NCBI GenBank assembly: GCA_947591175.1
Contig: CANQDB010000092.1
Span: forward strand, 1-5,098
Length of the DNA: 5,098 nucleotides
Direction of reading: 5' to 3'
Origin: an uncultured Bacilli bacterium
GTDB taxonomy: Bacteria; Bacillota_I; Bacilli_A; RF39; UBA660
Under the pieces are notes generated by a model. That model was given only the letters and a program-made list of their open reading frames with translations. It was not told where the DNA came from and did not search any database. The position numbers and the translations under genes are program-made. Every line of letters begins with the position of its first letter. The first letter of the stretch is position 1. Shown in pieces: positions 2,919 through 5,098 of this stretch.

Positions 2919-3131
2919 AATTCCTAACACAAAGTCTTTAGTTTTAGAAAAAATTGGATGCATTTTTTTGTAGGTAAAGACGTTTTTGTAAAAAGACGAG
3001 CAATGGGAAGTTATAATAAAATAATAGTACAACAAAGATTAAAACAAGTAAGAATAGGGTGAAGAATTGATGGTGATAATTATTTAATAATTTTAAGATG
3101 TCATCAAGAAAGTGAGCATTGGGTTGAAATA

Positions 3132-3217: not shown

Positions 3218-4315
3218 TCATGTTATTTTATCCTTACCATACGATAGTTTACAAGACCTAAAAGAATAATTAGGATAATTACCTAGAAAAGTAAATGTCG
3301 AAAATAACTTTCTCTGTAAACAGTAACTATCCGCATGTGAACTATGTCCCAAAAAAGAATTCCAACAAATCAAAACTTGATGAATATCAGAATTCTCTGA
3401 TTCACTCAGACTATTCCAAATTTTAATCTTTTTCTTAATCTTAATAACACTTCTTTTCCTTATTAAACGATGAGTTTCAAAAACTCTATAGCCACAAAAA
3501 TCAATTCCCCTTTTACTGGGGAAATAACAACTTTTAGGGTTTAACTTAAGTTTTAATTCCCAGCATAAAAAGTGTTGTATAGCACTAAATATCCTTTTAG
3601 CTTCTTCTTTAGAAGAAACTAAAAGAACAAAATCATCCATATAACGTAAATAATATTTTATATGTAATTCATGCTTAACAAAGTAATCCAATTTACTTAA
3701 ATATATATTAGCAAAATATTGTGAAGTATAATTTCCGATAGGAATACCTACTTTACCAGCACTATTTTCAAAAATCAATTGATGTGTAAAAGCAAGAAGA
3801 TCCTTATCCTTGATAAACTTTTTTAAAATATCATACAATATATCTAAATCAATCGAATAAAAGAAATGATGAATATCACACTTAATAACATAATATGCAC
3901 CATACTTTCTATTCATAATACGCATATATTTTTGCAAGTTAGTTGATGCTAAATGAATACCCCTATTATCAAGACAAGCATAAGTATCCTTAATAAATCG
4001 TGGCACAATATAAGGTTTAATAAATTCTCCAATATACCACTGTAAAACAATGCGATCTTTATAAGGAAGAGCCAATATCTCTCTTCTCTTTGGTTCATAA
4101 ATTGTAAAATGATAATAAGGGGTTAAATGATAAGTACCATTTTTTATACGCTGAACAAGACTCATTAAATTAGTTTCTAAGTCCAACTCAAAAGTAAGTA
4201 TTTCTTTTGTTAAAGTTTTATGTTTACAAGTTCTCAAATAAGCTTCATAAAAACAAGAGTAATTAAGTTTATCACTTAATTTTACCTTTAGGCTTTTTGG
4301 CACGAAGCAATCCAT
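3218..4315 (-). CDS. DGR-type reverse transcriptase
   Basis: Recognisable RT motifs: IYEPKRREILALPYKDRIV, YACLDNRGIHLA, YVIKCDIHHFFYSID, GIPIGNYTSQYFANIYL (IGNYTSQ at 3719-3739, the DGR-diagnostic [I/L/V]GxxxSQ), YLRYMDDFVLL (YMDD at 3632-3643), LKLNPKS, IDFCGYRVF, and the C-terminal WNSFLGHSSHADSYCLQRKL typical of DGR RTs. There is no maturase/X or endonuclease domain. Start could be ATG at 4315 or GTG at 4303. Confidence 0.93.
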   Translation of the reverse strand: MDCFVPKSLKVKLSDKLNYSCFYEAYLRTCKHKTLTKEILTFELDLETNLMSLVQRIKNGTYHLTPYYHFTIYEPKRREILALPYKDRIVLQWYIGEFIKPYIVPRFIKDTYACLDNRGIHLASTNLQKYMRIMNRKYGAYYVIKCDIHHFFYSIDLDILYDILKKFIKDKDLLAFTHQLIFENSAGKVGIPIGNYTSQYFANIYLSKLDYFVKHELHIKYYLRYMDDFVLLVSSKEEAKRIFSAIQHFLCWELKLKLNPKSCYFPSKRGIDFCGYRVFETHRLIRKRSVIKIKKKIKIWNSLSESENSDIHQVLICWNSFLGHSSHADSYCLQRKLFSTFTFLGNYPNYSFRSCKLSYGKDKIT

Positions 4316-4719
4316 CCTCCTAACAAATTACCAAGATTATAAAGCTTTTTACACCAAGCACTATAATTTTTATTACTAATATACTTTTTTCGATAAGAAA
4401 TACGAGCTAAAGCTTTAATAAATTTTAATTGCACATCCAATTCAAATAAATAATGCAATTTATCTTTTTTTTCATAAAAACGATAAGCAAACAGTATATC
4501 TTTTAAGCCATCGTAAATAGCCTCACGAACATCAGCACTAAGACCATAACGTTCACTTTTAGGATATTTAAGTAATAAAGTAGTTGTATAAATGATCATT
4601 TCTATATATTGCCTATAGATAAGTAGTCCTTCTACCCCTTCATTTTTCTTGAGCACTTCTAAAATATCTTCTTCGCCTTTCTTGATGTCTACTAACGTAA
4701 CTTTATCATTATTACTCAT
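4288..4719 (-). CDS. avd: Avd (accessory variability determinant), four-helix-bundle protein of the 23S rRNA-intervening-sequence protein family
   Basis: YPKSERYGLSADVREA (YPKSERY at 4546-4566) matches the FPKxE+xxLxxQ+RRA-type signature. C-terminal NLGNLLGGWI (GGW at 4312-4320) matches the conserved Avd C-terminus. Size (143 aa), helical heptad-like composition and position directly upstream of a DGR RT all fit. Strong RBS AAGGAGAGG 7-8 nt upstream of the ATG at 4719. Confidence 0.85.
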   Translation of the reverse strand: MSNNDKVTLVDIKKGEEDILEVLKKNEGVEGLLIYRQYIEMIIYTTTLLLKYPKSERYGLSADVREAIYDGLKDILFAYRFYEKKDKLHYLFELDVQLKFIKALARISYRKKYISNKNYSAWCKKLYNLGNLLGGWIASCQKA

Positions 4720-5098
4720 GATTACACCTCTCCTTTAATTCAACTAATATTTGAAAAGCATCCATTGGACTTATTTTATAAATATCTAGTTGTGATAAAT
4801 ATTTTTGAACATCATCGGAAGAATCACAATTAGTGGATTTCAAATGATGTTCTTGATTAATAATCTTATAATTGATTTTTTTATTATTTAATATCTCTTG
4901 ATATTTTGAAAGTGCATTTTTAGGAAATCCACACTTCATAATATCTTTGGTAAAAGATAATTCTTTCAAAGAGAGAATAGAGGACATAATGTGAGAATCT
5001 TCATCGAGAAACAAGTAAAAAGCCCCACATTCAAATAGATAATAACAATCTTTATTTTCTTTTTTTAAATCCAAATACTTTTCGTATATATAACTCAT
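4712..5098 (-). CDS. Mini MutS-like protein (MutS mismatch-binding domain I plus a MutS C-terminal-like helix), a DGR accessory gene
   Basis: YEKYLDLKKENKDCYYLFECGAFYLFLDEDSHIMSSILSLKEL...KCGFPKNALSKYQEILNNKKINYKIINQ aligns by eye to E. coli MutS residues ~13-95 ([42 protein letters not shown]...[28 protein letters not shown]). The C-terminus LDIYKISPMDAFQILVELKE resembles the L-(T/S)P-x-(E/Q)A-x-x-x-L-x-x-LK segment near the end of bacterial MutS. The ATG falls exactly at the window edge, so upstream signals are not visible. Confidence 0.7.
   Translation of the reverse strand: MSYIYEKYLDLKKENKDCYYLFECGAFYLFLDEDSHIMSSILSLKELSFTKDIMKCGFPKNALSKYQEILNNKKINYKIINQEHHLKSTNCDSSDDVQKYLSQLDIYKISPMDAFQILVELKERCNHE

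Follow-up and report, generated by a model that had tools for sequence, protein, structure and literature searches.

A MutS-Like Gene Precedes avd and the Reverse Transcriptase Gene

We analyzed a 5,098-nt stretch of DNA (hereafter the window) from an uncultured Bacilli bacterium (assembly GCA_947591175.1, contig CANQDB010000092.1), in which a small MutS-like (MSL) gene precedes the accessory gene avd and the reverse transcriptase (RT) gene of a diversity-generating retroelement (DGR). The G+C content of the window is 25%, and all the genes of interest lie on its minus strand. The MSL gene (4712..5098, minus) runs from an ATG at 5098–5096 to a TAA at 4714–4712 and encodes a protein of 128 aa, as proposed in an initial annotation made from the letters and a list of open reading frames (ORFs). 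It is followed by avd (4288..4719, minus; 143 aa), which matches the Pfam family bAvd (60.5 bits, cut-off 40) and the NCBIfam model DivGenRetAVD (72.9 bits), and by a DGR-type RT of 365 aa (3218..4315, minus), which matches Pfam RVT_1 with 65 bits and has a YMDD motif. In the RTs of DGRs, the signature (I/L/V)GxxxSQ replaces the QGxxxSP of group II introns, and the RT of the window, with IGNYTSQ, fits the DGR form.

The three genes share one strand and overlap, the MSL gene and avd (ATG at 4719–4717) by 8 nt and avd and the RT gene by 28 nt, which bears out the coupling to avd and RT claimed initially. At the MSL/avd junction (4712..4735), read directly from the sequence, AAGGAGAGG (4735–4727) lies within the MSL coding sequence and sits 7 nt upstream of the avd ATG. 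The start codon of the MSL gene coincides with the end of the window; the identical gene was found on two metagenome contigs, in which a GGAGG lies a few nt upstream of the ATG, itself preceded by a terminator-like hairpin, and the family shows hardly any variation in its N-terminus, MSK(L/I)Y. The upstream GGAGG and the conserved N-terminus indicate that the start is real and not a window-edge artifact.

Domain I Is Retained with a Modified Recognition Motif

The MSL protein matches the Pfam domain MutS_I (PF01624) with 43 bits (E-value 5.8e-11; gathering cut-off 20.6), its residues 6–89 aligning with positions 5–92 of the 113 of the profile. This is the sole Pfam match in the 128 residues: domains II–V of MutS (connector, core, clamp, and ABC ATPase) are absent, and the full-length MutS model TIGR01070, whose cut-off is 641.7, yields 35 bits. 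The structure predicted by AlphaFold2 from 120 sequences of the family has a mean predicted local distance difference test (pLDDT) of 85, with 10-residue block means of 94–96 over residues 11–80 and 87 over residues 1–10. The domain I core (residues 1–83; 4850..5098, minus) is modeled as a helix (3–14), a beta-hairpin (19–24/27–31), a helix (32–41), a strand (54–59), a helix (60–72), and a strand (77–80). When this model was compared with the PDB by Foldseek, 50 of the 50 matches at E ≤ 1e-3 were MutS, MSH3, or MSH6, and the alignments listed spanned approximately 70–110 columns, mostly about 80 at a root mean square deviation of 1.5–2 Å.

Like bacterial MutS (TIGR01070; Escherichia coli, Thermus aquaticus), the MSL protein thus displays the domain I fold together with the majority of the positions conserved in it, namely G-x-F-Y, (D/E)DA, L-T-K, and G-(I/F)-P. 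Unlike it, it has no connector, core, clamp, or ATPase domain, its domain I stops at the "EQ" position, some 20–30 residues short, and Asp35 and Glu38 are replaced by Ala and Leu, respectively. From its sequence, it is predicted to be incapable of ATP hydrolysis, of forming a sliding clamp and, as far as is known, of binding MutL.

The replacement of Glu38 falls in the mismatch recognition motif, which reads GAFYLF in the window (5009..5026, minus). HMMER alignments of the family profile with T. aquaticus and E. coli MutS show no gap through this motif, G25-A-F27-Y-L29-F-L aligning with G-D-F36-Y-E38-L-F of the E. coli protein; F27 (5018–5020) therefore corresponds to F36 and L29 (5012–5014) occupies the position of E38. 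On all these points, namely a MutS domain I with its fold, the removal of domains II–V, the position of GAFYLF, and the retention of the Phe with a Glu-to-Leu change, the initial annotation agrees with our results. In E. coli MutS, the F36A mutation abolishes specific binding and E38Q abolishes the discrimination between matched and mismatched DNA, and Glu38 also belongs to the signal toward the ATPase (reviewed in PMC3848065). Among the E. coli MutS chains, the E38T, E38A, and E38Q mutants score best against the MSL profile, slightly above the wild type. These E38A/Q/T mutants (PDB 1wbb, 1wbd, 1wb9) resemble the MSL protein in having the Phe without the Glu; however, they are full-length proteins with an intact ATPase, and the hydrophobic residue found in the MSL protein was not among the substitutions tried.

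We then turned to the relatives of the protein. At the Glu38 position, the 260 members with a G-x-F-(Y/F)-x motif, out of 269 collected, carry Ile (216), Leu (31), Val (9), Tyr (2), His (1), or Asn (1), and in no case Glu, so that the loss of this residue is a family trait and not a quirk of the window gene. The Phe, in contrast, is invariant across about 270 relatives, and likewise in the divergent MSL-B paralogs described below, which suggests that a base-stacking role is still under selection. At one related locus of a Clostridia metagenome-assembled genome (MAG), L035, the difference can be seen side by side: the genuine MutS encoded there retains GDFYEMF, whereas the MSL protein reads GIFYIF.

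The C-Terminal Tail Is Homologous to the MutS C-Terminus

Domain I is followed by a poorly conserved and probably disordered linker (residues 84–93; 4820..4849, minus), which varies in length in the alignment and has a pLDDT below 50 at residues 84–91, and then by a tail (residues 94–128; 4715..4819, minus; LDIYKISPMDAFQILVELK) modeled as a helix-loop-helix, with helices at 94–103 and 111–127. Pfam, searched with the tail alone, contains no family that models the MutS C-terminus, and the homology of the tail was assessed with the full-length MutS model of NCBIfam and with an in-house profile of MSL tails. Against 18,950 NCBIfam models, the 37-residue tail had a single match, positions 811–839 of the 840 of TIGR01070 MutS (E-value 0.02–0.05); the same match was obtained for 21 of 46 diverse family tails, and every other family matched at most once. 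The tail-only profile matched the E. coli MutS C-terminal domain structures 3zlj_C and 2ok2_A at residues 827–852 (E-value about 0.1). When it was run against 4,057 ORFs of related loci, it retrieved one genuine MutS, the 880-aa protein of L035 (residues 853–878, E-value 4.9e-9), the next non-MSL match having an E-value of 0.083. The C-terminal motif shared with bacterial MutS is (L/I)D..x(L/I)(T/S)P..A(L/F)..L..LK, and the MutS-type tail motif was found in 84–89 of the 235 full-size family members.

Judging from these profile matches, residues 94–128 are homologous to the dimerization/tetramerization domain at the C-terminus of MutS, and the MSL protein may likewise form oligomers. The MutS homology of the C-terminus claimed initially is therefore upheld, but the tail consists of two helices instead of one and is separated by the linker from domain I, to which it had been thought to be joined directly. 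In E. coli MutS, D835 and R840 belong to the corresponding helix-loop-helix. This helix-loop-helix stabilizes dimers and forms tetramers, and the last 53 residues of the protein mediate a tetramerization that plays an important part in suppressing recombination (PMC3848065).

Retention of such a tail raises the possibility that it is the active part of the protein, which would assemble with the host MutS, through the C-terminal domain of the latter, into mixed oligomers and thereby poison dimer or tetramer assembly, or tether MutS to the particle formed by Avd and RT, domain I being secondary. Besides the significant match to a Firmicute MutS C-terminus and the role of E. coli tetramers cited above, the L035 locus speaks for this explanation, its MSL tail being 50% identical to the same-locus MutS over 22 residues as compared with 28% for domain I. 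Nevertheless, the tails of 57 MSL proteins are only modestly closer to the L035 MutS than their domains I are (median identity 37% vs. 30%), and no difference is apparent for the window protein (30% for the tail vs. 33% for domain I); as evidence of co-evolution between the tails of MSL proteins and of host MutS, this amounts to a single MSL/MutS pair from one locus and a small family-wide difference. Moreover, natural fusions (see below) swap the tail for Avd and keep domain I, which suggests that domain I is the essential part and that the tail serves as a tether that can be replaced, and an action through the tail leaves the invariant Phe unexplained. We therefore consider this explanation unlikely.

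The Window Protein Belongs to a Known Family Associated with DGRs

The window protein is not a new kind of element, as it belongs to the MSL family, one of the four classes of DGR accessory genes named by Wu et al. (2018; Nucleic Acids Res 46:11; PMC5758913). These authors found MSL genes, encoding proteins of 112–283 aa, in 16 of 372 DGRs; avd was present every time and HRDC in no case, the DGR of Legionella being an example. They also described RTs with MutS_I-like C-terminal extensions. The window shares with their Architecture D a small MutS-homologous protein in a DGR cassette that has avd and lacks HRDC; no HRDC match was found among the five window proteins scanned with Pfam, the sixth large ORF being an ISL3 transposase. 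The isoelectric point (pI) of the window protein (5.8) is within one standard deviation of the value reported for the family (7.2 ± 1.7). The published description ends at "homolog of MutS," and nothing in it sets the window protein apart. A 2021 review, a 2024 study of Bacteroides (10.1101/2024.11.15.621889), and a 2026 preprint mention these genes only as "MutS-like," in keeping with the initial annotation, according to which large DGR surveys list them but no functional study is known. With respect to the searchable literature, our analysis adds a loss of the Glu throughout the family alongside an invariant Phe, the retained MutS oligomerization tail, the reproducible fusions to Avd, and the paired paralogs.

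When 5.8 billion proteins were searched with a profile, 325 matches were obtained, the best 120 of which are all 85–156 aa long and all contain PF01624. HMMER, run exhaustively against 1.84 billion cluster representatives (50% identity), identified 248 clusters at E ≤ 1e-10, and the best 150 of these are nearly all 75–237 aa long, most of them covering most or all of the query. A scan in which each prokaryotic species was represented by one genome yielded 78 MSL loci, nearly all in gut MAGs labeled uncultured Bacilli, Tenericutes/Mollicutes, or Clostridia, together with two in Muribaculaceae. Phage collections gave no match in 50,697 phage records and one in IMG/VR, which indicates that this branch of the family is mainly chromosomal; a few small MutS_I-only proteins are nevertheless present among predicted viral structures.

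These data bear on the possibility that the ORF is a nonfunctional mutS remnant, or a chance ORF in AT-rich DNA, which might be suggested by the 25% G+C of the window and by the other gene fragments that it contains (a truncated recombinase and an insertion sequence [IS] element). The dN/dS ratio between the window gene and a 77%-identical ortholog is 0.19, however, which indicates that the gene is under purifying selection and is not a decaying fragment. Given also the 248 clusters, nearly all of the best 150 of which are 75–237 aa long, the conservation of the start, ribosome-binding site, and avd overlap, and the confidently predicted fold, this explanation is effectively refuted by conservation, and we regard it as extremely improbable.

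The genomic context of the relatives was examined at the 67 MSL genes with enough flanking sequence, using profiles seeded from the Avd and RT of the window. Both avd and RT were present within 5 kb in 59 of them, and in 49 loci avd begins at or just after the MSL stop codon on the same strand. Approximately 40 loci contain repeat pairs in which 80–100% of the mismatches fall at adenines of one copy, the hallmark of DGRs. Neither avd nor RT was found at six loci, four of which are cut by a contig end and two of which are true orphans, neither avd nor RT occurring within 10 kb: one gene (L006, 2357–2746) adjoins spoIVA and the other (L053, 7535–7960) lies between genes for a FIST-domain protein and a cadherin-like surface protein. 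Such orphan MSL genes either serve a DGR located elsewhere or have another role.

In Bacilli-type cassettes, the order is target with its variable repeat (VR), template repeat (TR), about 240 nt, MSL, avd, and RT. A repeat search and an adenine-bias scan detected no TR/VR pair in the 5,098 nt of the window. This would be explained by the cassette order, which places both repeats upstream of the MSL gene, at whose start codon the window ends; by analogy with the related loci, they probably lie beyond position 5098. One stretch of the plus strand (2960–3080), whose translation loosely resembles a C-type-lectin VR, was considered as a TR and dropped, as the related loci have both TR and VR upstream of MSL. 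The exact MSL protein is confined to two short contigs, neither of which extends more than 239 nt upstream of it, and for the missing flank an exact-match metagenome scan found nothing and a profile scan only relatives of at most 51% identity. The spacer of about 240 nt between TR and MSL in related loci could hold RNA elements for RT priming. On one of the two short contigs (L001), the terminator-like hairpin (aaaaagcagtg...cactgcttttt followed by a T-run; 181–239), which in the window would fall beyond 5098, stands immediately before the MSL ribosome-binding site. The same contig (619–1014, corresponding to window 4288–4719) represents a near-identical strain variant with an unchanged MSL nucleotide sequence, whose Avd lacks 12 residues (FAYRFYEKKDKL) and has one A-to-V change.

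Fusions to Avd and Paired Paralogs

Two independent clusters consist of MutS_I-bAvd fusions, P0201 (237 aa) and P0178 (227 aa), in which Avd stands in place of the helix-loop-helix tail. P0201 is encoded identically on nine independent contigs and P0178 on four (loci including L107 and L108–L113), so that they are not assembly errors, and each is followed by an overlapping RT gene. At L107, the fusion gene (5001–5714) is accompanied by a VR (4251–4356) and a TR (4519–4624) that differ at 16 positions, 16 of 16 mismatches being at TR adenines. The MAG that contains this locus (CANQST, Lapin-032 bin60) also has a DGR with unfused MSL, avd, and RT genes (L079).

Seven loci (L034, L037, L047, L048, L051, L061, and L073) carry two MSL paralogs, a typical copy directly before RT and a divergent copy before avd, on the opposite strand. 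The divergent paralog keeps the Phe, has Asn, Arg, His, or Tyr at the Glu position, and contains "YGKDAY." Such a pairing is reminiscent of the asymmetric dimers of MutS. Taken together, the fusions and the paired paralogs argue for domain I as the essential module, for the tail as a tether or oligomerizer, and for a physical association of the MSL protein with Avd and RT. The fusions also point to an action within the RT-Avd particle, as opposed to that of a free decoy.

The same observations are those expected if the MSL protein served the RT-Avd ribonucleoprotein as a cofactor and had nothing to do with host mismatch repair; it might, for example, grip mispaired primer termini in the RNA:cDNA hybrid to carry synthesis past adenine misincorporations, or aid the cDNA in locating and invading the VR. 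The fusions to Avd, and to RT as described by Wu et al. (PMC5758913), the tight operon coupling, the constant place between TR and avd in Bacilli-type cassettes, and the two-paralog loci with one copy before RT and one before avd all fit such a role. Yet MSL function is not generally required, and a role confined to the ribonucleoprotein does not explain why a MutS oligomerization tail has been retained; we hold it to be rather unlikely.

In one further cluster, P0170 (202 aa) has a Cro/C1-type helix-turn-helix domain (HTH_26, 41.6 bits) at the N-terminus of an MSL protein with a MutS-type tail. N-terminal extensions of about 70 aa in P0221, P0227, and P0253 were considered as further fusions and rejected, as they look like mis-called starts and Pfam backs only the HTH_26 of P0170. 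P0164 (2,323 aa), which looks like a polyvalent mobile-element protein, contains DUF285 repeats, four or five MutS_I domains, one with F-Y-E and another with F-Y-H, and an ArdC N-terminal domain (anti-restriction, ssDNA-binding).

A Possible Role in Shielding Mismatches from Host Repair

In mutagenic retrohoming, a cDNA with a dozen or more mismatches has to get through host mismatch repair, and the MSL protein is the sole DGR-encoded protein with an obvious link to this problem. We propose that it is an ATPase-less mismatch binder, carried on the Avd-RT particle, which would keep the host MutS off the mutagenized heteroduplex; we regard this reading as a serious possibility, to be held tentatively. 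According to this proposal, the MSL protein would be made in fixed proportion with Avd and RT from the overlapping genes, its helix-loop-helix would render it oligomeric and/or dock it on a partner, and it would travel with the Avd-RT-RNA particle. When the adenine-mutagenized cDNA pairs with the VR, the invariant Phe wedge of domain I would stack on mispaired or distorted bases. A hydrophobic residue stands in place of the Glu that serves in mismatch verification and in signaling to the ATPase, and the ATPase itself, the clamp, and the connector, which binds MutL, are missing; consequently, binding by the MSL protein could not license repair. By simply sitting on the heteroduplex, it would prevent a return to the parental sequence, through MutS-dependent repair or heteroduplex rejection, until the changes have been fixed by replication. 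The fold, the motif, the tail homology, the operon coupling, the DGR association, the purifying selection, and the fusions to Avd are results of our analysis, from which nucleic-acid binding, oligomerization, and the effect on repair are inferred.

The initial annotation had likewise suggested that the protein could shield A:N mismatches from the host MutS/MutL or channel them. Experiments in Bacteroides make this proposal more plausible, since deletion of the host mutS raises retrohoming 5–10 fold, with an unchanged mutation pattern, an effect that the authors read as all-or-nothing repair of the heteroduplex (Macadangdang et al.; 10.1101/2024.11.15.621889). This experiment bore on the host mutS and not on msl, and the hosts of the Bacteroides Msl genes (Bfr, Bth, and Bun DGRs) belong to a different phylum from those of the relatives of the window protein, for the most part MAGs of uncultured Bacilli, Tenericutes, and Clostridia, with two Muribaculaceae. 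In engineered DGR systems in E. coli, which require the inactivation of repair, mutS is deleted or a dominant-negative MutL is added. The parallel that we propose with such repair blockers (the dominant-negative MutL E32K, mutS deletion) is a local relief from repair for mismatched cDNA edits; the engineered blockers are, however, artificial and act on the whole cell, whereas the MSL protein is natural, is unrelated to MutL, and would exert any effect on repair locally.

Several points weigh against the proposal. Much of the grip of MutS on DNA comes from its clamp domain, which is absent here, and the isolated domain I may therefore bind DNA only weakly. The pI is in the acidic to neutral range (5.8; family median 6.3). 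The MutS-type tail profile misses about 60% of the family, in which the tail has diverged; the largest subfamily has a diverged tail of similar length with an apparent helix-loop-helix pattern. Many hosts of MSL-type DGRs are reduced-genome Bacilli/Tenericutes MAGs, which may not possess mutS. Retrohoming in the Bordetella phage is independent of mutS (Wu et al.; PMC5758913), and a search of 8 million full texts found no biochemical or genetic experiment on any MSL protein.

Finally, in the Bacteroides study, the three Msl-encoding DGRs are of low activity and the two without Msl are highly active. This correlation, which runs counter to the proposal, would be expected if the MSL protein were a brake or gate, whose binding to the heteroduplex or to the particle limits retrohoming and makes diversification rare or conditional: the three Msl-encoding elements are of low activity both in vitro and in mice, and the two others are constitutively active (10.1101/2024.11.15.621889). 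The correlation is confounded, however, as transcripts of avd, TR, and rt are lower in the Msl-encoding DGRs; the same study ascribes the difference at least partly to this lower transcription, and it comprises five elements only. Furthermore, neither the Phe wedge nor a fusion to Avd is obviously needed for a brake, which makes this explanation quite improbable in our opinion.

The shielding proposal can be extended to a more specific form, in which the MSL protein is a natural anti-mismatch-repair factor, that is, a dominant-negative fragment of MutS delivered by the particle to the cDNA:target heteroduplex. Its Glu-less Phe wedge would sit on the mismatches while its tail caps or disrupts the oligomers of the host MutS, and repair and heteroduplex rejection would thus be turned off locally without the whole cell becoming a mutator. 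In this complete form, we consider the scenario doubtful, albeit conceivable. The findings on the Phe/Glu site, the tail, the fusions, and the paralogs nevertheless turn the label "MutS-like" into specific features that can be tested. Should the MSL protein prove to be a local repair blocker, it could replace the inactivation of repair in the whole cell in continuous-evolution tools based on DGRs or retrons.

Neighboring Genes in the Window

Downstream of the RT gene, a noncoding stretch (3217–2920) is followed by an ORF of 241 aa with an AlbA_2/Schlafen domain (2194–2919, minus; 65 bits), the first ORF after RT, which stops just before a recombinase fragment and may itself be truncated. It has no known link to the DGR. 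The recombinase ORF (138 aa; 1748–2164, minus) matches only positions 92–170 of the 172 of the Phage_integrase profile, corresponding to the C-terminal half of the tyrosine recombinase fold, and is probably an integrase truncated beside the IS element. Recoding of TGA (code 4) was suspected because no long ORF was listed in 216–1748, and was rejected when this region was found to be an ORF leaving the window. This ORF, missing from the ORF list because it is open-ended, encodes an ISL3-family transposase of more than 568 aa (3–1706, minus; open at the window start), with matches to DDE_Tnp_ISL3 (84.6 bits) and Zn_ribbon_ISL3 (33 bits).

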